From Chiloscyllium plagiosum (Eukaryota): a stretch of DNA of 48,927 nucleotides. The first letter of the stretch is position 1. Every line of letters starts with the position of its first letter. Below are positions 922 to 37,862 of this stretch, piece after piece. The notes beneath the pieces were generated by a model. That model saw only the letters and a list, made by a program, of their open reading frames with translations, did no database searches and was not told where the DNA came from. Position numbers and translations under genes: made by a program. Where the stretch lies: assembly GCF_004010195.1 (NCBI RefSeq), contig NC_057719.1:21919895-21968821 (forward strand), written 5' to 3'.

Positions 922-1176
922 AAAATGTGTTGCTGGAAAAGCGCAGCAGGTCAGGCAGCATCCAAGGAACAGGAGAATCGACGTTTCGGGCATAAGCCTT
1001 TCCTGAAGAAGGGCTTATGCCCAAAACGTGGATTCTCCTGTTCCTTGAATTCCTGAAGAAGGGATCATGCCCGAAACGTCGATTCTCTTGTTCCTTGGAT
1101 GCTGCCTGACCTACTGCGCTTTTCCAGCAACACATTTTCAGCTCTGATCTCCAGCATCTGCAGCCCTCACTTTCTC
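922..1176 (+). mobile_element. Penelope-like element mini-insertion (family A): inverted partial terminal repeat + two tandem hammerhead units + complete 3' end
   Basis: Perfect 15-bp target-site duplication ccttctggtagtatg at 907-921 and 1177-1191; inverted arms; 50-nt tandem unit. Confidence 0.85.
1053..1080 (+). ncRNA. Minimal type-I hammerhead ribozyme motif (core intact, one stem II mismatch); a mutated tandem copy lies at 1003-1030
   Basis: CTGAAGA-A-GGGA tcat GCCC-GAAA-CG-TC; the ACGT palindrome forms stem III. Confidence 0.65.
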
Positions 1177-1392
1177 CCTTCTGGTAGTATGGTGACCAGA
1201 ACTGCAATGCAATATTCCAAATGTGGTCTAATTTAAGTTTTAGACAGCTGTAACATAACTTGCCAACTTTTAAATTCAATTTCGCAGACGATGAAGGCAA
1301 GAGTACTATATGTCCTTCACCACCTTACCCACCTGTTTTGCCACTTTCAGGGATCAGTGGACCTTTACGCTCACATTCTTCTATATGTCAAC

Positions 1393-1960
1393 ATGTTGAC
1401 CTATATTTCAAAGGGAATGGAATGTAGAAATAAGGAGGTCTTGTTAAAACAATACCAGCCATTAGTCAGACCAGACCTGAAATATTGTGAACAGTTTTGG
1501 TCTGCTTATTGAAGAAAAGACATGAGAGCTTTGGAGGCAGTACAGAGAAGTTTTATTATGTTGGTCCTGGGTATGGAATAACTATCTTTGAAAGAGGTTG
1601 AGTATGTTGGATCTATATTCATTAGGATTTAGAAGAATGAAATTCTTCAATTATTAGGTGCAGAAAGGTTGTTTCCCTTGTGAGAGTCTAGGACCAGAGG
1701 GCATCATCTCAGAGTAAAGGGTCACCATATAAGTCAGAGATGAGGACTAATTTCCACTCTCAGAGGGTGGTGAATTTGTGGAACTCTTTACCATAGAGGA
1801 TTGCAGAGTTTGGGTCGTTAAGCATATTCAAGGCAGAAATAACCAGATTTTTAATCAGTAAGGGAATTAAGACAGAAATGTATAGTTGAGGATTATCAGA
1901 TCAGCCATGAATAACAGAACAGAGTCAGTGGCCTGTGTCTTATTGTCCTATGGTGATGTT
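1393..1960 (+). mobile_element. 5'-truncated CR1 LINE
   Basis: Translation MLTYISKGMECRNKEVLLKQYQPLVRPDLKYCEQFWS followed by a CR1-type 3' UTR. Confidence 0.85.
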
Positions 1961-2299
1961 CCCACATTGAACAATGAAGAGATGCTATGTTAAGCTGGTA
2001 GACAAGCTAAGTTCATATCTAATAGTTAATCTTCTATAGTGAAATTTTAGTGGTGTCCATGAACCTCTATTGATATTTGCTGAGGTAAGGCAAGTGAATT
2101 GTATTGTTCACTGCAAGATTCACTTCTAACATGTCCTTGGATTCTGGCCATGTGGAGGGGAAACATCCTATAAAGAGAACAAGAATATAATCAAAGGAAA
2201 TTGTGAGGAAGCCATTTTCATAAGCTCTTGAGAATAAACAATGTTGGGATATAAAATATATATTTGAATTTGTGTTGTTTTTCAATAGTGCATTGCATT

Positions 2300-2620
2300 T
2301 TTGCTTTTTACTGAGAGACAGCTCCCATCTCAACTCCTGTACATGTTCCAGTTTGAGTGATCCTAACAGTTCTGGTTCTCTCCTCTCTTGTGCATCCCTT
2401 CCTCCCTTTATGCTACTATTGGTTGGGCCTTCTGCTGCTTCAATCATCCTTGAATAGCCTCCTTGCAAACCACTCATCTTGACTGAATTATTTGTCATTT
2501 TGATTTGGTATCCCCTGGCTCAGCATCTGTTTGATTTTAAAGATATCTCTGTGAAACACCTTGAGGCTTGTTGCTTCCTTGGTACAAACATATGTGATCA
2601 AGTGATCTTTTGCTGCTTTG
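2300..2620 (+). mobile_element. Ancient L2-like LINE 3' relic
   Basis: Degenerate tail ...ctctgtgaaacaccttgagg... resembling the L2/Deu-SINE 3' end; highly diverged. Confidence 0.35.
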
Positions 2621-3877
2621 TTGATCATGCCTCCCCACTACCCTTACGTTTTAAATGAAAATAAAGTCAAAGGCTGGCCAAAAGGTGAGCTATTCATCTT
2701 CAAGGATGTGCATCATTTTCAAATATGTTTGATCATTCTTGTAAGCTGTGTGGTTACTTATAGAATGAGATATGTTACACTGAATAACAATTGCAATCTG
2801 TCTGCATATTTAACTGTGCTTTAAAGTGGACTATCTTAATACTCTAAATGAGACAGAAGGTTAAGACTCAGTAGATTACAAATCGGAGGTTGATGCTTTG
2901 GCAGTAAATTACTTGGTAAACTTGTTCCAAATGTGTTCATGCCTGACAGCTCAAAATTACCAGTTCTATGTTTAGCAGCAATATCTGAAACTAATGAATT
3001 AGGCATGAAAACTTTGGAACAAGAAGTGTTTATTTTGTGTTCAAAACTCAGTACCATTTCCTTGCTAGGGTGTGTCTGAACATGCACGTGTATAGTAGAT
3101 TTTCCAATCAATTACTCCGAATTATATGGGTTTTCACACAGAACATAGAACGCAGTAGCAGGAGAAGGCCTTTTGTTGCTTAGAACCTGTTCTGTTAGTG
3201 AATAATATCATGGCTGATCTGATTGTTGCCTCAACTTTACTTGCTATGACTCTCTTTTTGAAAACTTTGTCTAAGTCTGCTTTAAGTAAATTCAATGATC
3301 CACTGTTATCTGGGAATGAGTGGTCCACACACTAATGACCTCTAAAAAAAAAGGAATCTCTTTCTTATAAGGTTAAAAATCACTCAACACCAGGTTTTAG
3401 TTCAACGGGTTTATTTGGAAGCACAAGCTTTTGGAGCACTGCTCCTTCATCAGGTGGTTGTGGAGTGTAATGTTGTGGGACACAGAATTTATAGCAAATG
3501 TTTACAGTGTGTGTGCGGGGGGGAGGGGGGGGTGGGGAGGGGTGGAGGGGTATGACTGTCTGTGCCAATGTTTGTGTATATGTATGTGTTTGTGTGTGTA
3601 GTGCAGTGGGGTCACCTGCAGTGTGACATGAACCCAAGGTCCCGGTGTGAGGCCAACCCCATGGGTATCGAATTTGGCAATCAGCCTCTGCTCGGTCACT
3701 TTTCGTTGTTGCCTATCCTGACGTCCGTCTTTGAGGATGGTCACCCGAAGGTCCAAGGTTGAACACCCTGGAAGCTCAGGTGTTCTGTGAGTGGAGGGAA
3801 CACTCCTGTCTGTTGATTGTTGTGCGGTGTCCATCCTACGAATTGTCATGGTTGAGGATAAAGCAGATGAGTTGTAA

Positions 3878-5090
3878 CTTCATCCTTGATCGTAACGTTT
3901 TCACCTTTGATAACCTGTTCTTCATCCAGACACACGGAACAGCCATGGGGACCAAACTTGCACACCAATACGCCAACATTTTCATGCACAAGTTCAAACA
4001 AGACTTCTTTTCTGCACAGGACCTCCAACCAACAAGAGACACCACTTATATTGACAAACTTTTCTTCCTCTGGACCCATGGTAAGGAATCACTGAAAGAA
4101 CTACACAGTGATATCAATGAGTTTCATCCCACCATCAAACTCACCATAAACTACTCTCTCGTATTTGTCTCCTTTTTGGATACATGCATCTTCATTAAGG
4201 GTGCGCACCTCAGCACCCCACTCTACCACAAACCCACGGATAACCTCACGATGCTACACTTTTCCAGCTTCCACCCAAAACATGTTAAAACAATGACCCC
4301 CTATGGACAAACCCTACGCATAAACAGGATTTGTTCAGATGAGCGGAATGTGATGTACACTTGGAAGTACTCAAGGATGCCCTCATAAGAACGGGATATG
4401 ATGCTCAACTCATCGACCACCAGTTCTGACATGCAATAGCCAAAAATCGTAATGACCTCCTCAGGAGGCAGACATGAGCTGCAACCAACAGGGTACCCTT
4501 TATTGTCAAGTACTACCCAGGAGGTGGAAAACTACGCCATGTTCTTCAGAGTCGGCCATGCATTATTAATGAGGCACCTTGCCAAGACCTTCTGCACGCC
4601 TCCACTTCTCGCCTTTAAACAGCCACCAAAACTCAAACAGATCATTGTTCACAGCAAATTGCCTGGCTATCAGGACAACACTATACAAATTCATCATGGA
4701 GGACGCTGCAAGACGTGTCAGAATGTCGGCACGGATACCACCCATTACATGTGGGGACACCACCCACCATGTACGCGGCAGGTACTCATGTTGTCTATCA
4801 AATACGCTGCAGGCAAGGATGCCCTGAGGCATGGTACATTACTGAGACCAAGCAGAGGGTACGGCAATGGATGAATGGACACCACACAACAATCAACAGA
4901 CAGGAGTGTTCTCTCCCAGTCGGAGAACACTTCAGCGGTCCGGGCTATACAACCTTCGGGTGACTGTCCTCCAATGTGGACTTCGGGACTGGCAACAACG
5001 CAAAGTGGCCGAACAGAGGCTGCTTGTCAATTTTGTACCCATGGGGATGGCCTCAACCGGGACCTTGGGTTCATGTCATACTGCTGGTGA
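3878..5090 (+). pseudogene. PLE reverse transcriptase + GIY-YIG endonuclease, frameshifted
   Basis: QTHGTAMGTKLAHQYANIFM, TYIDKLFFLW (YIDD motif mutated), VSFLD, YHKPTD, CKTC linker and VVYQIRCRQGCPEAWYITET spread over several frames. Confidence 0.92.
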
Positions 5091-5105
5091 CCCCACTACA
5101 CCACC

Positions 5106-5106
5106 C

Positions 5107-5140
<34 letters not shown>
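5106..5140 (+). repeat. (CA)n microsatellite in the PLE 3' UTR
   Basis: Direct read; the inverted copy has (GT)n-rich sequence at about 3506-3600. Confidence 0.9.
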
Positions 5141-5141
<1 letters not shown>

Positions 5142-5509
5142 AGTTTGTGGGGTGAATTTGTATTTGCAGAATTACATTTTATTTTGCTCAAAACTGCATG
5201 TATCCATGTAAGAATCTGCAAATCCCTTTTTTAGATTAGAATCAGTCTGAACATTGGGGCACAGACAGCCTCACAGAGGGTACCTCACACCTTCAATGCA
5301 TTATCTGGGCCAACATGGCACCTATTGTTAACGTTTACTTGAGAATGTAACTTTTAGAATGTTCTGGAATTTACATATGAAAGAGCTGAAACCAACATGC
5401 TCATTCTAAAACATGAGAAACTTAACATACAATCCAGGTCTTTTTCAATTACATCACACTGTAAACTTTTGCTATAAATTCTGTGTCCTATGATCTTGTA
5501 CTCCACAAC

Positions 5510-5544
5510 CACCTGATGAAGGAACGGCACTCCGAAAGCCAGTG
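5510..5544 (+). ncRNA. Degenerate hammerhead motif in the family-B terminal repeat
   Basis: cac-CTGATGA-A-GGAAC ggc ACTCC-GAAA-GC-CA-gtg; U16.1 is changed to C and stem II is mismatched. Confidence 0.55.
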
Positions 5545-6856
5545 CTTCCAAATAAACCTGTTGGACTATAACTTGGTGTTGTGTGATTTTTAACTTTGTA
5601 CACCCCAGTCCAACACTGGCACCTCCAAACCTTTCTTACAAGGGAAGCCTTTTATTCTTAAACTGTGTCCCCAATTCTAGTCTTGCCTACAAGAGAAAAC
5701 ATTCTCCTCGCATCCACTCTGTCAGGTTCTGTCAGGACCTTCTACGTTTCAAAGTGATTCCATTTCATACTCCCAAATTCCAATGGATGTAGACTCAATC
5801 CGTTCAGGTCTTCTTCCTAAAGTAAGCCCTTCATCCCAGGAATAATAGTGAACTTCCCTGAAATGCTTCCAACCCAATTGTTTCTTTTCAAATGGAAACA
5901 AAACTGAAGATGGTATGTAGCAATAGTCTCACCAAGGCCCTGTTTGTCTGCAGTAGAACTTTTCTACTTTAATATTGCATTCCCTTTGCAATAAATGGCA
6001 ACATTCCATTTAATTATTCATGTACCAGATTACTCTGCACTTCTAAGTCTCTCTCCATTTAAATAGTGTACACTGCTTTTTCATTTTTCCCACATTATAC
6101 AGCAACTTTCAATTTTTTTTTTGCCAACTCACTTATTCTATTTACAACCCTTTACAGACTCTGCTTCTTCTTGACAACTTGAATTCTAATTTATCTTGGC
6201 GTCATCAGCAAATTTAGTGACCATGCATTTGGATCCCAGTCCAAATAATTGTGTGTATGTGATGCCTCAATATTGATTCCTGTGATACTCAAAAAGTTAC
6301 AGCTTGCCAACCCAAAAAGAGCCATTTATCCCTCCTCTTTGCTTCCTGTTAACAACCATCCTTTGTCTATACACATGTCACCTCCTACAACATTGTTCGT
6401 ATCTTGTGTAGCATTCTTATCAAATGCCTCTTAATAATCCAAGTTCATGACAAGTTTCCTTTCATCCAACCTGCCCATAACCTCCTCATAAAATCTCCAA
6501 TAAGTAGCTAAACATAATTTCACAAATTCTGTAACAACCTTGGAATCCAGAATGTTCCAAATAAGTTGTAACTAATTTAGAAAACATTATAGGTGACCTT
6601 TGACCTTTACATTTACATACCACGGTTTCAACAACTACCATATTTCACGTTTTTGCTTTTTCTGATTTTATTTACAACAAGGTTCGGAGTTTGGCTTATG
6701 AAATTAAGAGAACAACATTTTTACCTAATTTTGACATCATCCATACAAAGCATAATCATTGGCTGGAATATCAAGACGAGGATAATTGGAAAAAAATGTA
6801 TAATTCCCCTTCTTTCTGATTCCATTTGCTTGTTTGGACAAGATTACAAAAAAAAA

Positions 6857-8684: not shown

Positions 8685-8880
8685 GAAAACCTGAAAGAAC
8701 TGCAGATGCTGTAAATCAGAGACAAACATAGAAATTGCTGGAAAATGGAGGAAGAGGGAAAGGCAGAGAAGGGTTCTCAACCTGTGGTCCTTAGAAATCT
8801 GAGGAAGGGTCACTCAACCCAAAATGTTAACTCTGATTTCTCTTACAGATGTGGCAGAACTACTGAGCTTTTCCAGTAAC
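8685..8880. mobile_element. PLE terminal-repeat fold-back relic with a mutated hammerhead at 8799-8829
   Basis: actgcagatgctg...ttgctggaaaa arm and ...cttttccagtaac arm; CTGAGGAAGGGT...ACCC-AAAA-TGTT. Confidence 0.6.
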
Positions 8881-8894
8881 CTGGCCTGCACAGA

Positions 8895-9575: not shown

Positions 9576-9950
9576 CAAAAAGAGTCATAGAGTCATAGAG
9601 ATGTACAGTGTGGAAACAGACCCCTCGATCTAAATTGTCCATGCTGACCAGATATCCCAATATAATTCAGTACCATTTGCCAGCACTTGGCCCATATCCC
9701 TCTAAAGCCTTCCTAATCAAATACCCATCCTGATGCCTTTTAAATACTGCAATTGTACCAGCCTCCACCACTTCCTCTGGCAGCTCATTCCATACACGCA
9801 CCACCTTCTGCATGAAAAAGTTGCCCCTTAGGTCCCTTTTAAAAATTTTCCCCCCTCACCCTAAGCCTATACCATCTATTTCTGGACTCCCCCACCCCAG
9901 GGAAAATAATTTGTCTATTTATCCTATCCATGCCCCTCATGCTGGGTGTG

Positions 9951-10255
9951 GGGCGGCATGGTGGCTCAGCGGTTAGTACCAGGGTCCCAGGTTCAATTCC
10001 AGCCTCAGGTGACTGTCTGTGTGGAGTTTGTACATTCTCCCCATGTCTGCGTGGGTTTCCTCCGGGTGCTCCAGTTTCCTTCCACAGTCCAAAGATGTAC
10101 CGGTCAGGTGAATTGGCCACGCTAAATTGCCCATAGTGTTAGGTGTATTAGTCAGAGGGAAATGGTTCTGGGTGGGTTACTCTTCAGAGGGTCGGTGTGG
10201 ACTTGTTGGACTGAAGGGCCTGGTTTCACACTGTAGGGAATGTAATCTAATCTAA
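9951..10255 (+). mobile_element. HE1-type tRNA-derived SINE, full length
   Basis: Pol III A box tggctcagcgg and B box ggttcaattcc, V-domain-like core (gtgtggagtttg...tgcgtgggtttcctccgggtgctcc), and a LINE-like tail ending (aatct)n. Confidence 0.92.
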
Positions 10256-10810
10256 TGATTTTATAAACCTCTATGAGGTCGCCTCTCAGCTTTCAACACT
10301 CCAGGGAAAACAGCCCGGCCTATTCAGCCTCTCCCTGTAGCTCAAATCCTCCAACCCTGACAACATTCTTGTAAATCTTTCCTGAACCCTTTCAAGTTTC
10401 AGAACTTTCTTCTGATAGGAGGGAGATCAGAATTGCACGCTATATTCCAACAGTTGCCTAATCAATGTCCTGTACAGCTGCAACATGATGTCCCAATTCC
10501 TATACTCAATGTTCTGACCAATAAAGGAAAGCATACTTCACTATCCTATCTATCTGCGACTCAACTTTCAAAGAGCTATGAACCTGCACTCCAAGGTCTC
10601 TTTGTTCAGCAATACTCCCTAAAAACTTACAATCAAATATAAAAGTCCAAATCTGATTTGCTTTTCCAAAGTGCAGCACCTCACATTTGTCTAAATTTAA
10701 CTCGATTTGCCACTCCTCAGCCCATTGGCTCACCCGATCAAGGTCCTGTTCTAATCTGAGGTAAAGGACCGCAATTTCCCCCCAGACGTAGTCGACGATG
10801 CCCTCCATCA

Positions 10811-11350
10811 GGTTCCTCTATCTCTATCCATTCCAGCATGCACACCTGCTATTCAAATGTTTCATTCACTACAAAGTTCGTTTCATTCGTAAAGACCGAA
10901 GCAAAAAACTCATTTAGGGATTCTCCTACCTCCTCAGACTCCACGCACAAGATCCCTATGCTATCCCTGATTGGCCCTACTCTTTCTTTGACCATTCTCT
11001 TATTCCTCACATAAGTGTAAAATGTCTTTGTGTTCTCCCTAATCCGTTCTTCCAAGCCTTTCTCGTGCCTCCTCCTGGCTCTCCTCAGACCATTTTTGAG
11101 CTCCTTCCTCGCCTGCCTGCAATCCTCTAGAGCTGAGCTTTACCCTAGCTTCCTCCACCTTTTGTAAGCTACCTTCTTCCTTTTCACGAGAAGCTCCACC
11201 GTTCTCGTCATCCAAGGTTCCTTTATCTTAACCCTTATTGCCTGTCTCAGAGGGACATATTTATTCATCACTCGCAACAACTGTTCCTTAAACAGTCTCC
11301 ACAGGCCTATAGTGCCTTTACCATGGAACAATTGTACCCAATCCATGCTC
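10811..11350 (-). mobile_element. Internal CR1 ORF2 fragment (endonuclease-RT linker) embedded between PLE sequences
   Basis: KEPWMTRTVELLVKRKKVAYKRW and ENTKTFYTYVRNKRMVKERVGPIRD...LNEFFASVFT. Confidence 0.9.
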
Positions 11351-11528
11351 CCTCACCTTGACCTCCCTCCACCTATCGCATTTCCAAAGCCCCTCCCCTA
11401 AGTCCCCCCTCCCTGCTGGACACACTTTCCTCATTCCTGAAGAAGGGCTTATGCCCGAAACGTCGATTCTCCTGTTCTTTGGATGCTGCCTGACCTGCTG
11501 CGCTTTTCCAGCTACACATTTTCAGCTC
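11351..11528 (+). mobile_element. PLE 3' terminal repeat (family A)
   Basis: Near-identical to 1049-1145; preceded by a pyrimidine-rich PLE 3' UTR. Confidence 0.85.
11433..11468 (+). ncRNA. Minimal type-I hammerhead ribozyme motif, core intact
   Basis: CTGAAGA-A-GGGC ttat GCCC-GAAA-CG-TC (11437-11464); perfect 4-bp stem II, ACGT palindrome, short stem I. Confidence 0.75.
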
Positions 11529-11596
11529 TAACCTTCTTCACTGTCCACTACACTTCCAATTTTGGTGTCATCTGCAAACTTACTCACCACCCATCC

Positions 11597-11946
11597 ATCA
11601 TAGAATCCCTACAGTGTGGAAGCAGGTCATTTGGCCCAACATATATACACCAACCCTCCGAAGAGATCCCACCCAGACCCATTCCCCTGCTCTATTATTC
11701 TACATTTCCCCTGAATAAAGCATCACACCTACACATCGCTGAGCACTCTGGGCAATTTTTTTTTAAGCTTGGTCAATTCACCTAACCCACACATCTTTGG
11801 ACTGTGGGAGGAAATTGGAGCAACCATAGGAAACCCATGTGGAGAATGTGTAAACTCCACACAGATAGTTGCCTGAGGCTGGAATCAAACTCAGGCCCCT
11901 GGCGCTATGAAGCAGCAGTGCTAACCACTGAGCCACCGTGCTACCC
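11597..11946 (-). mobile_element. HE1-type SINE, full length
   Basis: The reverse complement begins gggtagcacggtggctcagtggttagcactgctgc, has a B box (gagtttgattcc) and ends in an (attctatg)-type tail. Confidence 0.9.
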
Positions 11947-12096: not shown

Positions 12097-12520
12097 GGTC
12101 ACTGCCCATTTCAAATCCCTCAACCGCTCCCTTTCCGACATGACCATCCTTGGAACAATACCTCACCTTTTGCCTGGGCAGCCTACAGCCCAGAGGACTC
12201 AACATTGAGTTCTCCAGTTTCAAATAATATTCCTCCCCATCCCCCGACTCACTTCCCAGCCTCTTCCCCTCCCTGCCACCAACCGGATTCATTCCTCCCA
12301 TTGACCAACCAGGTTGTACCCTCTGCCTGTCTTCACTTATCCCCACTTCACCACCCCCTTTATCTGCAGCTCCCCCCACACCCATCCCTAGTCATGAAGA
12401 AGGGTTACACCTGAAATGTCAACTTCTACACTTCCTCCTGATGCTGCCTGGCTTGCTGTGTTCTTCCAATCTCCTGCTTGTCTATTTTGGATTCCAGTGT
12501 CTGCAGCTTTTTTTGTCTCT
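12097..12520 (+). mobile_element. PLE 3' fragment (third family) nested in an L2/Crack-like relic (about 11950-12645)
   Basis: GIY-YIG C-terminal remnant (EQYLTFCLGSLQPRGLNIEFSSFK), C-rich UTR, mutated hammerhead 12394-12420, ...ttccagtgtctgcagc end. Confidence 0.8.
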
Positions 12521-12732
12521 ATAGGTAAAATGGCAGCAGGCATGTGATTATGTCATCACCTCCAAGATCACTTTAAATTTCACGATACCTTCACAAGAAG
12601 CATTGTGCAAGTAGGTGTACCACATGGACTGAAGTTATTCAGGAATGATTTGGAAGTGCCGGTGCTGGACTGGGGTGGACAAAGTTAAAAATCACACAAC
12701 ACCAGGTATCATCCAACAGGTTTATTTGGAAG

Positions 12733-12767
12733 CACTAGCTTTCAAAGCACTGCTTCTTCATCAGGTA
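12733..12767 (-). ncRNA. Minimal type-I hammerhead ribozyme motif, core intact
   Basis: Minus strand: tac-CTGATGA-A-GAAGC agt GCTTT-GAAA-GC-TA-gtg; stems pair allowing G-U; AGCT palindrome. Confidence 0.7.
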
Positions 12768-13038
12768 GCTGTGGAGCAGTATAAGACTTTATAGCAACAG
12801 GACTGCAGTGTCATGGCATGTAATATTTAGCAAATTTAGCTTAAGTCTTTCATCTTTCAGAATGATCACGTTAGTTTTGATTCCTTCATATATAAATCCC
12901 AGAACTTTTTAGACATTACATTCTCAAGATAACTTTTAAAAATAGGCGTCATCTCAACTCAGATGGCACTGTAATCCTGTTGCTATTTTTTAAAAGTTGC
13001 TGTTATAAAGTCTATGTCTTATGATTCTGTTCCACAAC

Positions 13039-13073
13039 CACCTGATGAAGGAGTGGCGCTCCGAAAATTAGTG
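13039..13073 (+). ncRNA. Minimal type-I hammerhead ribozyme motif, core intact
   Basis: cac-CTGATGA-A-GGAGT ggc GCTCC-GAAA-AT-TA-gtg; stem I cac/gtg, 5-bp stem II, AATT palindrome. Confidence 0.72.
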
Positions 13074-16000
13074 CTACCAATAAAACCTGTTGGTCTGTAA
13101 TCTAGTGTTGTGTGATTTTTAACGCTATTCAGAAACATTAGAAACGTTGCATTCAGTGACAGATACCAGAGGCTGAAGATTGTTTGGCCAGAGTCTAAAT
13201 ATATACTTGTCTCGTCAGAATGTTACTGCAACTCACACATCATGAAACACCACCACAATGATTAATTGATCCTGATACATGCAGATATGAAGGCACAGAG
13301 TTCTCATCAATTATCTCCGAATTAACAATATTCCCCCTTCGCTGTGTTTGCTCTCAGGCATCCCTATCTGACCCTATTAGATGGTAACTTTCACATCAAC
13401 TTCGAAAGGACAGTCAGGATGGACAATAAATGCTAACTTTGCTCGTGATTTTTACAGGCCATGAAAGAATGAGAAAAAGGTACAGTAATCATGACACATG
13501 CACTGATCAATTGATGTGACTGTAAAGGCATAACGATAACAATAGATAAAATGACTGGTGTAACACTCACCCAAAATCTTTCAAGCAAAGTGTTTGAGTC
13601 ATGATTTTCATGTTCTTCAGATAAGCAGAAAGTTGGTTCAGAATGCCTTTTGCAACGTTCAATTTTGCGCCTCCTCAGTTACTACCATAGTTTTCTGGGC
13701 TATTGCCTTATTGTGTATAATCTGAAAAAAATCTCTGCATGAAGTTCAAATATAGTGCAACCAATTTATAACTCGCATGTCGTGTAACGTAGAGCTATGT
13801 TTTATCCCGTAGAGCTGATGTCTAATCTCGAATCTGCCATTTTCTCCTTCTTCCAAGTTCTTCCTCTATGGAAGTTTAAAGTGTGGTGGCTGGCTGTAGG
13901 ATTTCAAGGCAACTCAAATGGAATTCAGCTGGGTCTGGTGTATGTTGTTGAAATTGCCCCATGATTCATTCAGTTTCATCTGCAGCACATCCATGAAACT
14001 GCGTGAAAGCAGTGACTGCTTCAGGTTTCTGCTAATCTTATCCATCAGCACATATAGTCAGACAAGTGCAAGTCTCATAAGTTTGAGTTGAAGGCTTTAT
14101 TAGCAACAATCTGAGTATATATGAGAACTATTCTGAGTTGAAGATTTGTTCCATTGAAGGTCCTACCTCATGCATCCCCTCAGATGGCCCTCCCTCCTGG
14201 GTAGACTGAGTTACAAAGAGCTGTTTTTTGATGAGCTGTGATAGCGCTCAACACTTCTTTTTTTATATATTTATTCTTAGGATGTGATGAAGGCTCATCT
14301 TTATTACCCATAACTAACAGTTGTTAACATTGTTTAAGGATTGACAAAAAGAAGGAGAGAAAGGCAGTGATTTACATTTAAATAGCACCTTTCGTGATCT
14401 CGGCACTTCCCAAAATACATAACAACCGTTATTTTACTTTCCTATGATAGGAATACCTCTTGTAATCAATACTGCTCAGAGAAAAATAAAATCATTCTTA
14501 TATGATAAAGCCCTCTTAAATTACAATGTTTGATTCCCAGTTTGGGTGCTTTTTGTGCAGTGAAGCTGTCGTAAGGAGCATTGGTTGAGAAATTGCAGAC
14601 CAGAAGCTACCAATTTTCAATTTATTTAGGTTCATAGAACTGGAAGTTAGTGACTTCCGGGCCAATTCTCCCTGTAAACTCTGCTTAATCCCAGAAGTCC
14701 CCAATCTGGGAATCAGCAGAGTATCCAGTTTATCTGCCATCACCGTTGATTCCACTCACACATACATTGTGATTGCTCCATTCCTATCTTCCTAAGTTAA
14801 CCTTTTATATCCTTGAGAGCATGTATAGATGAAGTAAATGGGTACGAATCATCCAGGGCGCAGTGCGCTGTAGTTCAGATTGAGTCAATTATGCAGCTCT
14901 GTTATTAGTCTACAGAAGCAGAAGATGGAATAATACATGCTCCAAATAACACTTGAAAATGGTCGATTCCATTACGAATGTGATGTCTTGTGGCCAGGTA
15001 ATGTCTCTGTATCAATAAGTGAGTACAAAATACATGACAATAGTAAAATGACACTCATTTGGTTTCCCTAGTTTTTTGATACTCAAAGATGTCAGGATCT
15101 GATATGATATTCAAGGTGAACTTTTAAATGGTGTAAAGAGCTTGGAGTGCTTAAGGCCTCCTATCTGTTTTGTAAAACAGTAATCTCCTGAAATTTCATG
15201 GAACTATAAACTAATAATTTGTTGTTTAGTTTGTTTACTATGAGGTTTCAATCAGTTCTCTAGTGCAATGTTGCAGCTGCAGACTACTGCTAGCTAAGTG
15301 GAATTTTCAAGGCCATTGTGTGTTTGTTGCTATATGTTGGATGACAATAGAATAAGGTCATGTTCAAAAGGAAACTCATGTTGCCTCAATATCGACCTCG
15401 ACACAGTAATTTCATTTATTACCTGCTTAATCATCATATAATTACTATTCATATTTTATTAATGGATGTCTTGTTTCTTAAGAATCTAAAAATATCATAG
15501 CTATTAGATTTCAAGTATCTGTTTTCCATTCACATGTTCATCATTTTCTTTCATAAAACAACATCATAAGGAATTGACTAAGACAGTCTGTGTCACCAAC
15601 TCTATCTCAGATAATACCAAATGACATACGCATCGAACAGACAAATAATATCGAATAATCTAATCTTTCTCATTTAGTTTCTAGTGCTGAAACAGAAATA
15701 TAAGTGTCTTATGTGTAATGTCGATGGCCTGATTTTGTATGAGAGCAATGCATTATTGGTAATACGTGATAACGTTTTGCTGAGGGGATGAATTAGAGTT
15801 AATAGTCAAAATCACAAGTGTTAGGAGAATGGCACCTAACCATTTGGAATGACAGAGATAAAACAGAAAGTTCAAAACCTGGGATGACCACCTAACAAGA
15901 AAGCAATTTATATTTCATGTAATTAACCATTCTAATACATTTCACAGGAACATTATCAATCAAGATTTGATACTGATTGTGAGAGTAAGATAGGTGAAAA

Positions 16001-16573: not shown

Positions 16574-16579
16574 GGAAGA

Positions 16580-18266: not shown

Positions 18267-18272
18267 AAGATT

Positions 18273-18356
18273 CCAAATAAACCAGTTGGACTATAACCTG
18301 GTGTTGTGTGATATTTCACTTCATCCACCCCAGTCCAACACCGGCACCTCCAAGTC
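18273..18356 (+). mobile_element. PLE family-B extreme 3' end inserted into the CR1 tail
   Basis: Matches 5548-5630; 16-bp duplication atgactctctaagatt (18257-18272) / atgactctctgagatt (18357-18372). Confidence 0.85.
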
Positions 18357-20067: not shown

Positions 20068-20156
20068 ATAATGTGGAGGGTTTGGTATTGGACTAGGGTG
20101 AACAAAGTTAAAAAAATCACACAACACCAGGTTATAGTCCTACAGATTTATTTGGG
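20068..20156 (-). mobile_element. PLE family-B extreme 3' end fragment
   Basis: Reverse complement of the 5548-5630 sequence (caaagttaaaa..tcacacaacaccaggttatagtcc). Confidence 0.8.
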
Positions 20157-22786: not shown

Positions 22787-22902
22787 CATGAAAGAGATTC
22801 ATAGGAAACTACTGGCATGAATTAGTCCAATGCCTACAATTGGAAAAATGATAAATTCATGATCACTGAATGAAAATGTGACTACTGGAGGCATGTATCC
22901 TG

Positions 22903-22990
22903 AGTTGAAAAGTGTGACGGTGGAAAAGCACAACAGCATCTGGGGAGCAGGAGAGTCGACATTTTGGGCATAAGCCCTTCAGCAGGAATG
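22903..22990 (-). mobile_element. PLE family-A terminal fragment with a mutated hammerhead
   Basis: gaaaagtgtg..ggaaaagcacaacag..gagcaggagagtcgacattttgggcataagcccttcagcaggaat. Confidence 0.7.
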
Positions 22991-23184: not shown

Positions 23185-24272
23185 AGATGTCTACATAGTT
23201 TTCAGTAAGGCATTTGATAAGGTTCCGGAGAATAGATTGTTTGGCAAGGTTAGATCAAATGAAATACAGGGAGAACTAGCCATTTGGATACAAAGTTGGC
23301 TTAAAGGTAAGAGACAAAGGGTGATGGTGGAGGGTTGATTTTCAGGCTGGAGGCCTATGACCAGTGGATCAATGCTGGGTCCATTGCTTTTTGTCACTTA
23401 TATAAATGATTTGGATGTGATTATCGGAGGAATGGTTAGTAAGTTTGCAGATGACACCAAAAGTAGTGGACAACAATGAAGGTTACCGTAGAGTACAACA
23501 GGACCTTGAGATAGGCCAATGGGCTGAGGAGTGGCAAATAAAGTTTATTATAAATAAATAAGAGGTGCTGCATTTTGGTAAGGCAAATCAGGTCAGGGCT
23601 TATACACATTCTGGTAAGATCCTTAGGAATGTTGCCAAACAAAAAGTCTTTGCAATGCAGGTTCATAGTTTCTTGAAAGTCGAGTTGCAGGTTAATAGGG
23701 TCGTGAAGAAGGCATTTACTAGACTCGCCTTTATTAGTCAGTGCGTTGAGTATAGGAGTTGGGAGGTCATGTTGAGGCTGTACAGGACATTGTTTCAGCT
23801 GCTTATGGAATACTCCGTGCAATTCTGGTCTCCCTCTGAGACGAAAGATGTTGTGAAACTTGAAAAAATAGATTTACAAGGATGTTGCAGGGTTGGAGGG
23901 TTTGATCTATAGGAGACAATGAATAGGCTAGTTTTGTTGGAGCATTGGAAACTGAAGGGTACCTTATAGAAGTTTATAAAATCATGAGGGTGATGGATAG
24001 GAAGATAGTGAACGTGTTTTCCCCAGGCTATAGGATTAAAGGGCACAGGTTTAAAGTGAGGTGGAAAGATTTAAAAGGGACCTAAGGGGCAACTCAATCA
24101 CACAAAGGATGGTACATGGATGAATAAGTTGCTAGAGGATGTGGTGGAGTATTTGGATAGGTATATGAATAGGAATATGGGCTAAATGCTGGCAAATGGG
24201 ACGAGATTAATTTGGGATATCCAGTCGACATGGACAAGTTTCACATTGTACACCTCTATGACTGTATGACTA
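23185..24272 (+). mobile_element. CR1/HER1-type LINE, RT domain to 3' end, decayed
   Basis: DVYIVFSKAFDKVP...WIQSWLKGKRQRVMVEG, KFADDTK, LHFGKANQ...YSVQFWSP; (atgact) tail. Confidence 0.92.
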
Positions 24273-25815: not shown

Positions 25816-26026
25816 AGATCAACTTCCTTTGAGATATGCTTGATCACCACTGTTTCATCATTTACCAAAAACCATGGGGCATAATCATTATCACTCTCAT
25901 GAACTTTATCATATTTATTTTCTTCCTCATTTTGGTTTCTACATTGTGACTAGTTTTAACCAGGTATCAATACATTTATTGCAGGTCACATTTTTTAGCT
26001 TCATATTCATATGGAATGTGCTTTCA

Positions 26027-26362
26027 TAGAACATAGAACAATACAGTGCAGAACAGGCCCTTCCATGTTGGATTTTGTGCCAACCTGTGAACTAATCCAA
26101 GCCCATTCCCCTGACACTATCCCATCATCATCCACGTGCTTATCCAAGGATTGTTTAAATCTCCCTAATGTGGCTGAATTAACTACATTGGCAGGCAGGG
26201 CATTCCACACCCTGACCACTCTCTGAGTAAAGAACCTGTCTCTGACATCTGTCAGAAATCTATCACCATTCAATTTGTAGCTATGCCCCCTCATACAAGC
26301 TGACGTCATCATCCAAGGAAAAAGATTTTCACTGTCCGCCCTATCAAATTCTCTAATCATCT
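26027..26362 (-). mobile_element. CR1 LINE 3' fragment
   Basis: KMIREFDRADSENLFP...RGHSYKL...RFFTQRVVRVWNALP; (catagaa)2 tail. Confidence 0.9.
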
Positions 26363-27744
26363 TCATTTGGCTCAGTTAAGAATTGGGAACATAGTAGCCT
26401 AGATAAATGACTGGCAGTTTTGAAACTATGTTGGTTTTCACACTGGACACTTGGACTTGCACTGTTTATTATGGAGTAACTTAGAGAGTAAAGAGCTTTC
26501 AGTTGTAATTTGTCCACAATTATTGACTTTTTGGGCATAGGCTTTGCACAGGGATTACGGAGATTTCTATAATTTCCTGGATGAGCTGACAGCACCATTT
26601 GGCTCTAAAATTAATTTAAAATATGTTGTATAATCAATAATTTTTTTGCAAGCATACTATTTCTCAAAAGTTAGATCAGCAGGCCTTTTAGAAGGTGTCA
26701 ATATTTTTAGCAGTCCCCCGCACAGAAGAAGTTTGATAACTGGTGGGAAGTGTCTACCATTACTTGTTCCTGTGAATATCTATTTTGTACTGTGTACAAG
26801 CTGGTGTTGTTTTGAATCCCATTTTATTTCCTTGCACATGAGCTAGTTTGCATAAGCATCTTTGCAAATAATGAATGCATTAAAATAATTATACCTAAAT
26901 TGGTAAGGCAGATGATGGATGGGTTGCTTGGAGGGATATATTTGATTTACAGACACAATGGAGAATAGAAAACCAAATGATGCTTTTTTCTGCCATCATT
27001 TTCAAGCCCTTTCCTCAGGGCTGTGAGTAAGTGATTGAGCACGTATCGAAACATGAGCAACTCCCAAGAAAGCAGAGATTCCTACTCTCCTTTGCTTCTG
27101 CTGGTACAAGATAGTTTGTGAAATATGGAACATCATTACCCACGTACTTGTTCACCTTCCAAAACCTTAGCAGAGGTCATTCATTTCATTCAAGTTGCTG
27201 TTTACGACAAGCAATAGCTTGTACTGCTGGTTACTAGGTAATCATTGCCCCTAGCTGTCAAACGTCTTGTCAAAACAATCTTCCAATGAAAGGAGTGGAT
27301 GAGGGGGGGGAGTTAGGAGGAAGTGACACCTGAGGTCAAGAATTTTATGTGGATTCCATCACAATCAGATAAGGTTATTCTTTTAAATCATGTTTGCCTT
27401 CGGCTTTTTTTGCCGCAGTTGATAGTCTTTATGAAGTTAAACCACAATGATGTACTGTATCTAATGGCATCCTGTTTAACTATGGTTCATTTGCCTTCAT
27501 ACTAAAGGATTGGTGCTCTGTGTGGTGAAAGATGAATCCTTCAGAATTGTCCTTCATTATTACACAGGTGGAGATTTTTAAAAAATGTGAGTCTAAATAC
27601 ATAATCTGTATGACAGCTTAAAAAAAAGGCTTACTTTAGAAAAGTCACCATGTTGCCTAAATCGACAATACTAACTTACATTAATGCAGCTCCTTCAACA
27701 TAGAAAATATTTCAAGACTACTAACAAGAGCAGAATCAACCAGC

Positions 27745-29860: not shown

Positions 29861-30454
29861 AGCAAGTACTTAAATGTGATTAATTTGTCCTTTGGACAAT
29901 TAACAGTTCTGCTTTCACAATAAAATATGCAATAAGAGTTTCATGATATGTTTTGTTCACTGAGCATAGAGAGCTTTCTCATGCTTTTGTCTGAAACTGG
30001 GTCCAGTACCAGATCCCTGTGGTGCACAGTTCTTCATATTATCCTACTTGTCGTGGGTGGACATGCTGGGAGATTTCGGGTTCCTTAGTGCCAGTGCTAT
30101 ATTTGAAGTCCAGCTATGCATCTGGTCTTGTGCTGCCAGTCTGGAGTTGCCTTTTACCATACATCTTCGTGGGAGAGCAACTACAAACTAATGCTTCTCA
30201 TTCCACATAGGAGGTAGAGCTGACAGTTCATTGAACATAGAATTGCACAACCTTACTGTTATGAAAAGACAAATTGAAAGTTCTGATGGTGCCACTTTCT
30301 GCAGGGTGAGGGGGTCCTCAGATGTCCACCTTTTCCCTCAACCAAAGATTGCTTGCTCCTTTGTTTGGATGGCAGTGTTCACTGTGTTGGACCCATCTCT
30401 TGCACTTCTGCCCTCACTTCCTCACTTCCCTTCCACAATTCTGATCCGGTTCTG

Positions 30455-31736
30455 AAATCAAAAAATACTGAAAATCACAGCAAGTCAGGCAGCATCCACA
30501 GAGGGAGAGCAAACTAATGTTTTGAGTCTAGATGACTCTTCATCAGAGCTCCCCGCTATCCAAAGCCCTAGCCACACTTTCCTATTAAAGCAGCAATTGA
30601 CCTGTGCTTCATTCAATCTAGTCTGCTGTACACGCTGCTCACAATCTGGTCTTCTCTACACTGGGGAGATGAAACATAACCTGCGTGTCTGCTTTGTAGA
30701 ACATTTACACACTGTCCACAAAAACCACCCTGATTTTCTGGTTGTCTGCCACTTCAACACACCACCATGTTTCCTGGCCAACATTTCTGTGTCTGGCCTG
30801 CCTCAGAGCTCAGCACAAGCTCGAAGAACAGCATCTTGTTTTCCAATTGGCGACCCTGTAGCTTTCAGGACTTAATACCAAATGCACTTGAGGGCCTGAA
30901 CACCTTCTTCTATGTTATTTACCCACATCCACACCCCAGCCCCAGTCATTGCATGGTTTGCTTCTGGAAAGGTAAAAACAAGGACTGCAGATGCTGGAAC
31001 CAGATTCTGGATTAGAGTGGTGCTGGAAAAGCACAGCAGGTCAGGCAGCATCCGAGGAGCAGGAAAATCGACATTTCAGGCAAAAGCCCTTCATCAGGAA
31101 TACAGGCAGAGTGCCTGGAGGGTGGAGAGATAAATGAGAGGAGGGTGGGGTGGGGAGAAAGTAGCATAGAGTACAATAGATGAATGGGGGTGGGGATGAA
31201 GGTGATAGGTCAGAGAGGAGGGTGGAGTGGATAGGTGAAAAGGAAGATAGGCAGGTAGGACAGGTCATGGGGACAGTGCTGAGCTGGAAGTTTGGAACTG
31301 GGGTGAGGTGGGAGAAGGGGAAATGAGGAAACTGGTGAAGTCCACATTGATGCCCGAGGGTTGAAGCGTTCTGAGGCGGAAGATGAGGCGTTCTTCCTCC
31401 AGGCATCAGGTGGTGAGGGAGCAGCGGTGAAGGAGGTCCAGGACTTCCATGTCTTCAGGAAAGCCAATTCATTCTCAACTACTTCTGGTCTCCATTAGTC
31501 ACTTTTCTTACTTTCTGGCTTACCATTATCCATCTCTGTCTAACTACCTTTCTCTCCATCTGGGCTCTGTTTTCACTATTGTTTACTACCGCACCACTGT
31601 CTTCAACACATAAACCTCTTTTTCTGAGCTGCTATCAGTTCTGAAGAAGGGCCAATGGACCCAAAACATTAACTCCGCTTTCTCTCCACAGATGCTGGCT
31701 GACCTGCTGAGTTTCTCCAGCAATTTCTGTTTTTGC
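30455..31736 (+). mobile_element. PLE (GIY-YIG remnant) with an inverted 5' terminal repeat, interrupted by another PLE
   Basis: QQLTCASFNLVCCTRCSQSGLLYTGEMKHNLRVCFVEHL; inverted termini; mutated hammerheads at about 30517-30546 (-) and 31641-31671 (+). Confidence 0.85.
30972..31452 (-). mobile_element. PLE 3' fragment (family A-related) nested in a PLE
   Basis: GIY-YIG C-terminus, purine-rich UTR on +, hammerhead motif 31070-31097 (-); duplication cttctggaaag (30961-30971) / cttcaggaaag (31453-31463). Confidence 0.88.
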
Positions 31737-33305: not shown

Positions 33306-33785
33306 AAGGTAAAAACAATGACTGCAGATGCTGGAAACTAGATTCTGGATTAGTGGTGCTGGAAGAGCACAGCAGTTCAGGCAGCATCCAAGGAGCTTTG
33401 AAATCGATGTTTCGGGCAAAAGCCCTTCATCAGGAATAAAGGCAGTGAGCCTGAAGCGTGGATAAATAAGCGACATTTCCGCCACTTCCAAACAGACCCC
33501 ACCACCAGGGATATATTTCCCTCCCCACTCCTTTTCGCCTTCCGCAAAGACCGTTCCCTCCGTGACTACCTGGTCAGGTCCACGCCCCCCTACAACCCAC
33601 CCTCCCATCCTGACACTTTCCCCTGCCACCGCAGGAACTGTAAAACCTGCGCCCACACCTCCTCCCTCACCTCTATCCAAGGCCCTAAAGGAGCCTTCCA
33701 CATCCATCAAAGTTTTACTTGCACATCCACTAATATCATTTATTGTATCCGGTGATCCCGATGCAGTCTCCTCTACATTGGGGAA
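33306..33785. mobile_element. PLE (family A-related): minus-oriented terminal repeat joined to a plus-oriented linker/GIY-YIG fragment
   Basis: RHFRHFQTDPTTRDIFPSP..FRKDRSLRDYLVRS...CHRRNCKTC..TCTSTNIIYCI...LLYIGE; hammerhead motif 33406-33433 (-) CTGATGA-A-GGGC tttt GCCC-GAAA-CA-TC. Confidence 0.9.
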
Positions 33786-34103: not shown

Positions 34104-34191
34104 GGTCAATAGGTGGTGGGAAAAAAAACAGCAGGTCAGGCAGCATCTGAGGAGCAAGAGAGTTGACATTTTAGGCTTAACCTTTCATCAG
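34104..34191 (-). mobile_element. PLE family-A terminal fragment
   Basis: cagcaggtcaggcagcatctgaggagc...ttcatcagg; 18-bp duplication ggcttgctgatagtacag (34086-34103) / ggctggctgatagtacag (34192-34209). Confidence 0.8.
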
Positions 34192-36177
34192 GGCTGGCTG
34201 ATAGTACAGCTACATCATATGAGTGTAACACTAGACACAATTGACTGACTACACAGATAGATTTGCATTGTGATCTCTGAAGATGAGGTGAGGACCTTTG
34301 CATTGGCACATTACATGCTCTGATATCATCGAATCATTCAAAATGTTTGCTGTCTTTCTGGGATCTATGCAATAATGTTATGTAAGTATACCTTGTGTTC
34401 ATTGTTATTTTGAATACATGAACTTACCAGCATCAAACTTAGAAGAAAGTTACTGCAGACAATGGGCCACCTAACTTCAAATTATATTAGAGGAGAATTA
34501 TCAAATTGAGTTGAAAAAAGTGGAAAAAATGTAGAATTAGTGAACTGAAGCAGCTTTTATCCACCTTACGGTATGCCAATAAACCTTTGTCAATCCCAAT
34601 GGCCATAGGAAATAAACAAGATTATAAAGATTTCAAATTGATTTACGTAAGCAAGTAATTCTTGCATTGAACCACAGTTGCCAGGAGCACATACCTGTAT
34701 TGAGCAATCATAGGCACGGTCCTTGTGAGCTTTTTTGTTAATCAATACTTCTGAGGGCGGCACTAATGTTTTCCCAGTCAAATCCTACGCTCAAGGCTAT
34801 GTGCCACAAAGCCAAGTTTGGAAAAAAAATATATTTTGCACAAACTATAGAATTATCAGGAGAGATAAATTGAGGAACAGGATTGCCACGGAAGACTAGT
34901 TGCCAGTGAGCCAACTTTCCAAACAATAGTGCCTCAGTTAAATGGATCATGTGCTTGGGTCAACAGATTGCAGGATATGTGCCAGGAACTCGACTGGTAG
35001 ATGAAGAGGGAACGGAAGCAAAGACAGCCAAGAACAAATTGGAAAAGCTCTTGTGTTCAATGTCACAGAAAAGGTATCACTTAGGAAGTGGTGCAAAAAC
35101 TTGTTGGAAAAAACATGTTGGAGTGGAAAAGGGTGTACCCAGATGATTTACCCTTTGAGTCCTGAACCTCTGTGGTCTTAGACTGGTGTCCTATTTTAAA
35201 GTGCATCTGGCTAAGGATGTAGAGATTTGTTGTTCATACATTTGGTGGGGCAATAGATTCAGTTGATCCATCAGACTCTAAAGTTGTTTTCCTCTAATCA
35301 TGTTAACGCGAACCCACTTTACATCCAAAAGCTCAGTCCAAAGTCATTTGTGAGGTTAAAATATTTGATGCAACAAAAAAATCAGGTTTTCTTCCTGATG
35401 TCTTAATTTGCCTAACATGCAGACAATAGCTCAAACTCAAAATAATCTGTGTGACACACTTCAAGACATTGAGATGTTGCATGGTGCTACAAAGATACAA
35501 TTTGTTTTCAGCTCGTTTGCAACTGACTGAATAGTGAAGCAGATCACTGATACATTGTTCAATGGGCAGACAATTTAATTGCAATTAGATTGAAAATACT
35601 GCAAAGCCACAAATCAACTCCAACCCTCTCCCTCTAAAATTCCATATCACTGAGACGAGTTGCTCACCATCGATTCACACGATTACTGGGATCACCTATT
35701 TTATCTTTGTCAATGATATACATTGCTTAAGCTTATCTGCAGCTGAAGCTTGTGCACATACTTCTGTTTATCGTTAGACTTTGCATCCTGAAGTTTACAA
35801 CCGAACACACATGCTTTCAGTGGCAGTGGGGTGAGGGAATGTGGTATCGGAAGGGTGAGCAACATGTTAAATATGTAAGGTGGCTAGCCCAGCACCTTCC
35901 TGTTCACCCTGACCCAAATGCTATGAAACTGAGGTACAGAGACCCTGCCTTTAGGCCTGTCAGGGCAATTAATCTCCACTTAAGACCTCCAATATACCTT
36001 TATTACGATAAGGTGGGAAGATTGAAAAGAGTGATTTCTCACCCAAGGTAGAAGGTAGGAAGGAAGGGATTGGAATGGATGCTTTCTTTATGGAGATGCC
36101 ACAAACCCTCTCTCCACCCACAAGATTGTACACTTTTTTTTAATCTCCTACTTGGACTTCAATATTCAACCCCATAA

Positions 36178-36638
36178 ATCCCTCTCCCCAGTGGGTGACC
36201 ATCTGGTGACCATCTTTGATCTCCATAGACCTCTTTGCAATTCCAGTATTGCCACAACTGAGCATGACTTGGTGTCAGTCATTGTTTAACTCTCTGAAAG
36301 ATGTGTTCAAACATTTTACTGCATTAAAGGTGCTATGTAATAATCGCGACAAAATATAACAAACTATTACAGTGATTTGTTTACATCCCATGTGCCTTTT
36401 CCAACTCTACTTCATCTAGCCATTTAGCCAGGCCTTTTATTTCTCTCTTTTATGTGGCAATCTAACTGGTCCTTCAAATGTATTGCAGTTACTTTCCAAT
36501 TTGTAACTGTTCTCTACCTGAAGAAATTCACTAGCCACTCATATTTGTCAGATGCAGAAGTGAAAGGATGTGAAATTATTTTGGATGGAGGTCTTGCTCA
36601 ATATGCAAGAATTTTGATAATAGTCATAACATATTCCC
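36178..36638 (+). repeat. Diverged direct repeat, copy 1
   Basis: Colinear with 41153-41646 (tctggtgaccatc.ttgatctccat, agatgtgttcaaaca, taaaggtgctatgtaata, aatataacaaactatta, ctgaagaaa, ggatgtgaaatta). Confidence 0.85.
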
Positions 36639-36859
36639 GCACCAAACTAACCCCCTACCTGCTTGCTTTTGTTGTACAAGGGAATTCAGTGCATCAAGGT
36701 CATCACTGTCTGTGATCAATTAAAATTGGAATGTGCAGGTGAACATTCTGGGCTGTAGTCAAATGACACAATTTTGTGGCAACTTATGGACCCGGGATTA
36801 TGTGATAATGAACAGATGTAACTTTGGTTTCTATAGAAGCAGAGACTTGGCTCATGGCC

Positions 36860-37210
36860 GTCCTGAGACAGCAACAGAAAGCTGCCAAGCTGAATATCTC
36901 ATTTCAATGTAACCACCTAGATCATAGTCAAACACATTAACAGTATCTTGGAAGCAGTGTATCAGATGTTTAGACAAATCTGTCAGTGGCATAGAATACA
37001 ATGCTGCCAATTGTAATGTGCTACATGCAAAAACATAGAAACTGTGTGCAGCTAGAGGATGAATTTTAAAAGGGAGTAGGACAGGAACCTGAAGATGAGG
37101 GACAATGAGGGTTATAGACAAAAAGGAGGGGGCTGGAATTAAGTGTGATGACACTTCAAAGAACCATTGGAGACACAACTGGGCTATTTCTGTACTAATG
37201 TTCCAAGATA
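36860..37210 (+). mobile_element. Old CR1 3' relic
   Basis: Degenerate CR1 3' UTR features (gaaactgtgtgcagctagaggatgaattttaaaagggagtaggacag...ctatttctgtact). Confidence 0.45.
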
Positions 37211-37514
37211 ACAACTTGGGGCCAAAAACTGAACAGAACGATAATGAAGAACTATAATTTTGCAGAGAGCTTGGGTGATATGATAGGGACTGTCACAGTA
37301 GTAGTCTGCCAAGACAATGAGTTACAAAGCTGACACATCTGTGCTATACATCACTCAAATATATTCTCACTAATATGGGCCTCTGCACTAACTGAACTAC
37401 AATAGATCCTATTCACGATTCTAAAAAAAATCTCTTTTGACATATACTGAAACATGACTCCCTATTTTAGAATTTCTTGCCTTTCTGTCAGCAGAATACC
37501 TAATAAGTTTAGAT

Positions 37515-37862
37515 CTAAAATGAAAACAGCAAGTGCTGGAGAAAATCAGCAGGTCTGGCAGCATTTGTGGACAAAGTTAAAAATCGTGCACACTAGATTA
37601 AAGTCCAACAGGTTTGTTTGGAGGTACTAGTTTTTGAAGCACTGCTTCTTCATCAGGTGGTTCATCAGGTGACAACCATCTGATGAAGGAACAGAAATCT
37701 GAAGGCTAGTGCCTCCAAATAAACCTGTTGGACTATAATCTGGTGTTGTGTGATTTTTAATTTTGTCCACCCCAGTCCAACACCGCCTCCTCCAAATTGT
37801 AGCATTTGTGGAGACAGAAACAGAGCTAATATTTTTGAGTCAAGTTTGACTTATTTCTGGAA
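37515..37862 (-). mobile_element. PLE terminal relic (as at 30455) interrupted by a family-B mini-element
   Basis: aaaacagcaagtgctggagaaaatcagcaggtctggcagcatttgtgga...gacagaaacagagctaatatttttgagtc. Confidence 0.7.
37572..37800. mobile_element. PLE family-B fold-back mini-element
   Basis: About 90-bp inverted arms; perfect 12-bp duplication agcatttgtgga (37560-37571 / 37801-37812); two mutated hammerheads. Confidence 0.9.

Follow-up and report, generated by a model that had tools for sequence, protein, structure and literature searches.

Minimal hammerhead-ribozyme motifs in the terminal repeats of Penelope-like retroelements at high load in the genome of the shark Chiloscyllium plagiosum

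We analyzed a stretch of 48,927 nucleotides from Chiloscyllium plagiosum (NCBI RefSeq assembly GCF_004010195.1, contig NC_057719.1, positions 21,919,895 to 21,968,821, forward strand; hereafter the window, in whose own numbering coordinates are given). A first reading made from the letters of the window (the sequence-only reading) had described it as a dense array of about 19 minimal hammerhead-ribozyme motifs carried by several families of Penelope-like retroelements (PLEs), and had called for covariation analysis. Judged by their sequence, the motifs are minimal hammerhead-ribozyme sequences of an already described kind, and the window copies are scattered terminal repeats, truncated at the 5' end, of PLEs that appear to be of Neptune type. 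The genome carries this PLE minimal hammerhead, a kind known from Cervera 2014, at an unusually high load, and the majority of copies are decayed. We consider it very probable that the motifs are minimal type-I hammerheads in 5'-truncated terminal repeats of at least three PLE families, that they likely matter only in the RNA of the element itself, and that the scattered copies are likely inert, decaying passengers.

Structure and covariation of the motifs

The motifs have the core CUGANGA, GAAA and UH, with an extra base after A9 and the pair G10.1-C11.1, and all 13 core bases, the extra base and this pair are conserved across four families, here called A to D; family D, in which stem II is longer, was found in genome samples and not in the window. 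The palindromic seed of stem III reads ACGT in families A, C and D, and AGCT in family B. Covariation was evaluated in 14 hand-picked natural copies from the four families, for which pairing of stem II, and not of stem I, was a selection criterion, and base pairs were counted by script, as MAFFT shifted family B by one column. Among these copies, 134 of 154 cells were paired, compared with a mean of 91 and a maximum of 106 in 5000 shuffles, and slid-register controls gave 56 and 43 paired cells of 126, against 110. Double-sided changes occur in 9 of the 11 pairs of helices I and II, which upholds the claim that stem II sequences differ between families while pairing persists. With covarying stems and ACGT or AGCT seeds, the assignment of the motifs to minimal type-I hammerheads of PLE terminal repeats, with a palindromic stem-III seed, is likewise borne out. 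Stem I is weak in the commonest subfamilies (C-G, U-A, U-U, A-U), and one subfamily has four Watson-Crick pairs there.

The families match the four features listed for the minimal hammerhead ribozymes (min-HHR) of metazoan PLE terminal repeats (pLTRs), sharing with them the type-I core, the extra base between positions 9 and 10.1, the G10.1-C11.1 pair and the palindromic 15.2-16.2 positions (PMC4209133). Also shared are the occurrence of many covarying families per genome, mostly as single motifs from truncated PLEs, and the presence of neighbouring copies paired in opposite orientation. One difference is that the main subfamilies here have a shorter stem I than min-HHR, and cartilaginous fish are not named in the part of that source available to us (PMC4209133).

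The carrier elements

Coding sequence adjoins the repeats in families A and B. On the plus strand of the window, at 3735-5647, a broken family-B reverse transcriptase (RT) fragment (3735-4388; relatives about 81% identical score with PF00078) is followed by a CX4CxxC linker zinc finger and a frameshifted GIY-YIG endonuclease (4440-5200), and then by a family-B 3' terminal repeat (5393-5647) with a hammerhead at C3 5513 that has lost U16.1. An inverted family-B 5' copy (3366-3752, minus strand; C3 3453, G12 lost) adjoins this unit, and the inverted arms I5, I23 and I24 are inverted 5'-truncated copies, a feature of PLEs. The same order of RT, endonuclease and terminal repeat was found in loci L045 and L094. 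Among eight genomic fragments, two passed the Pfam cut-offs, one RT (L038, PF00078, 30.2 bits against a cut-off of 29.6) and one GIY-YIG endonuclease (L002, PF01541, 23.8 bits against 22.6), and a search of PDB sequences with the RT gave no match below an E-value of 0.76. Family-B relatives extend the RT sequence of the window to a DKG motif, which reads PADKGG in both L046 (family B) and L090 (family A).

Family A is tied to coding sequence in the same manner, by loci L088-L096 and by two window copies: one at 30963-31450 (minus strand; C3 31097, core intact, palindrome and C11.1 mutated), which includes the 3' end of the endonuclease gene, and one at 33307-33760 (minus strand; C3 33433, H17 33406), with an inverted linker/endonuclease fragment on the plus strand. 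Family C is accompanied by an inverted endonuclease fragment, as the region 30452-30875 holds a minus-strand copy (C3 30546, G12 lost) and a GIY-YIG fragment on the plus strand at 30456-30875. The linker and endonuclease of family A align with those of family B, and in both a CX4CxxC zinc finger lies between RT and endonuclease. This finger would place the elements, by this single feature, in the Neptune or Nematis clade of endonuclease-containing (EN+) PLEs (PMC8557442), which have a CX2-5CxxC linker and also share with the present families a C-terminal GIY-YIG domain with CCHH, the DKG motif, inverted 5'-truncated copies and a tail; the linker finger is absent from Penelope/Poseidon, unlike families A and B (PMC11167929). 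Thus RT, linker and GIY-YIG sequences adjoin the repeats, and the view that several Penelope-like families carry the hammerheads stands, with at least three of them.

Copies in the window

Terminal-repeat pieces were located by BLAST with natural copies as queries, which gave 23 pieces (10 of family A, 8 of family B and 5 of family C). The hammerhead core is spanned by 18 copies within 980-37720, and an additional, 5'-clipped copy lies at 203, in close agreement with the count of about 19; a plain scan also recovered CTGANGA...GAAA where the sequence-only reading had placed it. A strict descriptor matched the window 6 times, compared with a mean of 0.24 (maximum 2) in 100 dinucleotide shuffles, and a descriptor with the palindrome and at least 2 bp of stem I matched it 4 times, compared with 0.02.

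The full core bases are kept in 6 of the 18 copies (C3 1053 and 11437 and 13042 on the plus strand; 12764, 31097 and 33433 on the minus strand), and four of these (1053, 11437, 12764 and 13042) keep the palindrome as well. Accordingly, four of the five copies that had been listed as intact hold up, but the fifth, with H17 at 33406, has lost its palindrome (ACAT in place of ACGT) from an otherwise intact core. When each copy was folded in 160 nt of its own context, stem II formed with a probability of about 0.7-0.8 at 11437 and 13042, of 0.01 at 1053, where it has 3 bp, and of 0.00 at 12764, which has G-U at 10.1-11.1. The family-A copy at 11350-11529 (plus strand; C3 11437) is a consensus-perfect minimal hammerhead with a predicted cut after C11464. 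The two family-B copies at 12645-12776 (minus strand; C3 12764, H17 12736; core and AGCT intact, stem II weakened) and at 13000-13123 (plus strand; C3 13042; core intact, predicted cut after A13070) are head-to-head partners. Both predicted cuts fall on the bases given previously. The two best copies, 11437 and 13042, could not partner each other, because their palindromes differ (ACGU and AAUU). At 13042 both palindrome bases at 13067-13068 are changed (AGCT to AATT) so that it is still palindromic, probably by chance.

The description as a dense array did not survive, since the copies are dispersed, and their density of 470 pieces/Mb is slightly above the 318/Mb of the genome samples (Poisson P of about 0.05). 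The window holds no tandem series in which every unit has an intact hammerhead: the sole tandem pair, 1003/1053, has a broken first copy, and all other copies are dispersed or inverted. That pair lies in a family-A cluster at 920-1177, formed by an inverted copy (C3 about 1007, core mutated), the decayed plus-strand copy at C3 1003 and the core-intact plus-strand copy at C3 1053 (H17 1080).

Copy ends, insertion and decay

The 5' ends of family-A copies fall within 10 nt of C3 in 80 of 140 copies and, in a second sample, in 81 of 135; starts at the cut site numbered 5 in each sample, and on these counts the cut site was rejected as the starting point of copies. With most copies starting a little 5' of the ribozyme and few of them at the cut, the templates appear to have been uncut. 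The 3' ends form two clusters, at about +90 (94 of 276) and about +125 (141 of 276) from C3, a pattern that the anole element, with its two sites of RT initiation, would lead one to expect (PMC11167929), and more than half of the family-A copies are stubs of 90-130 bp without coding sequence. That green anole element, PAc Poseidon, also resembles the present families in its optional tail of 30-40 bp, in uncut RNA being the main template and in the absence of RNA-seq ends at the cut site (PMC11167929).

Based on these ends, the element transcript would start a few bases before the ribozyme, which is their simplest reading, and reverse transcription would have two alternative start sites, about 90 and about 125 nt downstream, with uncut RNA copied back to the transcript start to give the 90-130-bp stubs and the head-to-head pairs. 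Following published work, the ribozyme, having no stable helix III, would fold only as a dimer through ACGU/AGCU or with the protein of the element. Among 145 copies, CpG sites were changed in 21% of cases, compared with 3.9% for other core bases; such change after insertion would remove G12, C17 and the palindrome, and these would be stripped first.

The 3' end of the 11437 copy meets RT sequence of a CR1-type long interspersed nuclear element (LINE; window 11515-11590) at the same base as in loci L002, L003, L004 and L005, and this type of PLE-LINE junction has 16 exact matches genome-wide. These loci represent independent insertions, because their inserts vary in length and the target is duplicated at L002; a LINE subfamily carrying the 11437 copy was rejected on the same difference in insert length. 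A variant of the tail has about 6 nt in common with the target, which suggests microhomology-guided insertion.

U6 chimeras and cleavage in vivo

A survey of U6 sequences (48 scored matches at 46 loci, of 453,147 candidates) revealed U6 joined to family A at six loci. In four of them (L103, L120, L167, which equals L180, and L173) the join is exactly at G1.1, the predicted scissile bond, and the remaining two join in the endonuclease region. Locus L173 (C31:9507000-9508000) carries two junctions, as head-to-head U6-PLE chimeras both at the predicted cut, and resembles a PLE-type inversion of ligated RNA. RtcB is known to join U6 to 5'-OH ends (PMC6789731), the kind of end that a hammerhead leaves. 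The joins at the scissile bond constitute indirect evidence, drawn from genomic sequence, that the element RNA is occasionally cut in vivo, which may take place in germ-line cells and would leave a 5'-OH end at G1.1. The chimeras of U6 and LINE-1 made by RtcB likewise consist of U6 ending in a T tract and joined to retroelement RNA, but those joins are at variable positions (PMC6789731), whereas four of the six loci here share one bond; in-vivo evidence of this kind is not reported for PAc in the part of PMC11167929 available to us. A pattern search for U6-PLE joins showed no enrichment (3 matches, one of them a real U6 join, against 6 in the control). No report of a U6-PLE join turned up in the literature search, which did not reach subscription journals, Repbase or the supplement of the bioRxiv study.

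Other sequences also follow U6 copies. One tRNA-like short interspersed nuclear element (SINE) stands after many U6 pseudogenes, often directly past the T tract (L101, L108, L109, L113, L118, L121-L126, L170, L171, L174, L177 and L183-L185). A shared non-PLE repeat follows U6 in L102, L105, L110 and L116, three of which are clustered on C21, and L104 has tRNA-like sequence 3' of its U6 copy.

Genome-wide load

An exact pattern for intact family-A motifs had 70,570 matches in the 3.56-Gb genome, a narrower-loop version had 46,320 and the family-B pattern 4,066, each with none in the control, in agreement with the earlier expectation of a very large number. We took 80 samples of 10 kb at even intervals (767 kb after exclusion of N), like all genome samples from large contigs, and found 244 terminal-repeat pieces in them, which extrapolates to about 1.1 million in the genome. 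Pooled samples totalling 1.63 Mb held 56 intact motifs, equivalent to 34/Mb (95% range 26-45) and to about 120,000 genome-wide (roughly 90,000-160,000). Published min-HHR counts are about 9,000 in Xenopus and about 4,000 in coelacanth (PMC4209133), against the 70,570 found here with a different descriptor and genome size. Shark counts for PLE hammerheads were not found in our literature search; subscription journals and Repbase lay outside it, as did one Cervera supplement and the bioRxiv supplements, in which a cartilaginous fish may be listed.

Alternative readings

The sequence-only reading had inferred that some motifs could cleave host pre-mRNA, and we therefore consider whether intact copies in long introns pair, or recruit PLE protein, and cut host transcripts often enough to matter. 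At the density given above, a 300-kb gene would hold about 5 intact motifs on its sense strand; the copies 1053 and 11437 share strand and palindrome at a distance of 10.4 kb, the U6 chimeras indicate that cut ends do arise, and family copies occur in poly(A) RNA, where 2,212 reads of set X19 (none of X20) match 11340-11640, although only 37 of them are at least 99% alike, so that they come mostly from other copies and possibly from a related species. Sense depletion is nevertheless absent. In 11 gene spans inferred from ordered Pfam exon matches (9 on the plus strand, 2 on the minus strand; 89 stretches, 862 kb, all from glutamate-receptor-type genes), 18 intact motifs were sense and 10 antisense (P=0.18), all terminal-repeat pieces were 141 sense and 120 antisense, and a two-fold sense depletion of intact motifs was rejected (P=0.0008). 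The 4-bp palindrome duplex is worth a computed -1.7 to -2.5 kcal/mol, minimal motifs in published work were inactive as monomers and only weakly active as dimers (PMC4209133), and cleavage of the anole motif needs the protein of the element, whose inferred binding region is the first 172 nt of the anole open reading frame (ORF), which short stubs may be without (PMC11167929). Consequently, a cleavage test in Mg2+ alone could give a false negative. No pile-up of reads was seen at 11465 or elsewhere across 11340-11640, in a poly(A) single-cell library that is a weak assay for cut ends. Altogether, host cutting on a scale that matters appears unlikely, the inference of the sequence-only reading finds no support, and lone intact copies likely do not cut host gene transcripts.

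It is more doubtful still that the short copies are a class apart, non-autonomous and either SINE-like or retrozyme, whose members multiply by themselves through cleaved or circular RNA. The predominance of coding-free stubs would fit such a class, and animal retrozymes derive from PLE terminal repeats; the non-LTR retrozymes share the type-I hammerhead and include one reported chondrichthyan (bioRxiv 10.64898/2026.07.22.740005). Retrozymes form tandem arrays, however, whereas the copies here are dispersed, start upstream of the ribozyme and not at the cut, and have 5' extensions that continue unbroken into endonuclease and RT sequence. We regard as very improbable that the motif is no ribozyme at all and is instead a promoter or protein-binding hairpin resembling one, even if an Rfam scan of the window (3 matches at E-values up to 1) gave no hammerhead, family-A stem I is marginal, and insertion in vitro is unaffected by hammerhead mutants (PMC11167929). 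Such a hairpin would leave unexplained the core, extra base and G10.1-C11.1 pair kept in four families with compensated stems, as well as the coincidence of U6 joins with the scissile bond, and the homologous anole motif does cleave and is rescued by C3G/G8C (PMC11167929).

Several observations also weigh against minimal PLE hammerheads carried by inert passengers, the reading that we prefer. The covariation set was selected partly by stem II pairing, and stem I of the commonest subfamilies (2 bp, a U-U mismatch and one pair) has a pairing probability of at most 0.03, so that family-A motifs, those counted as intact included, may be inefficient as ribozymes. In 19 long loci, which do not amount to an exhaustive search, there were only broken ORFs and no intact full-length one. 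The non-CpG core bases show slightly fewer changes than the 3' flank (3.9% against 5.6%, P=0.017); this could reflect weak selection, although subfamily differences are counted in the flank. RT stalling at the hairpin is another possible cause of the pile-up of 5' ends, and a cap-derived extra G before solo copies was undetectable in a small sample (9 of 24, 38% expected). Finally, the LINE control of the intron test was likewise unbiased (46 against 50), so that the sensitivity of the test is unproven. Intronic cuts may be tolerated during splicing.

Further features

The window holds further terminal-repeat copies. Family A contributes a head-to-head pair at 102-285 (both strands, both clipped inside the ribozyme), a decayed minus-strand copy at 22896-22990 (C3 22985) and a decayed family-A-like one at 34112-34192 (minus strand, C3 34191). 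Plus-strand copies of family C lie at 8793-8880 (C3 8799, G12 lost), 12394-12520 (C3 mutated) and 31635-31723 (C3 31641, G12 and palindrome lost), and family-B pieces without ribozyme at 18271-18361 (plus) and 20064-20155 (minus). At 37523-37796, a family-C remnant accompanies a family-B head-to-head pair (C3 37656 minus and 37680 plus, both decayed). Pfam searches of 32 window ORFs of at least 100 aa gave one weak RVT_1 and one weak DUF match, and no host gene. Fragments of CR1/L2-type LINEs occupy 9580-10820, 17800-18120, 19240-19880, 23436-23912, 26007-26375, 43206-43649, 44640-45315 and 46375-46871, and 43206-43503 is a 149-bp tandem duplication with 98% identity. Elsewhere in the genome, C13:63.7-65.9 Mb holds a large cluster of ANF-receptor-domain genes, which are probably V2R-like chemoreceptors.

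Significance

A broader proposal seems to us evenly balanced between right and wrong: that the genome holds about 100,000 intact motifs, some ten times the vertebrate counts found in print, that U6 ligated at the scissile bond records their activity, and that the ribozyme, at the 5' end of the transcript, serves to switch between templating and processing and not in the insertion step. In that case a leader of about 30-35 nt would be lost on cleavage, and the remaining RNA would have a 5'-OH open to ligation. As both the class of motif and the element that carries it were already known, the window taken alone is unremarkable. What PLE hammerheads do is treated as an open question in the literature (PMC8557442, PMC11167929), and the 5' ends together with the U6 joins give a testable model of transcript start and in-vivo cleavage. 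Moreover, the very high load makes this genome well suited to asking whether tens of thousands of latent ribozymes burden their host, and the first such test, presented here, says that they do not.

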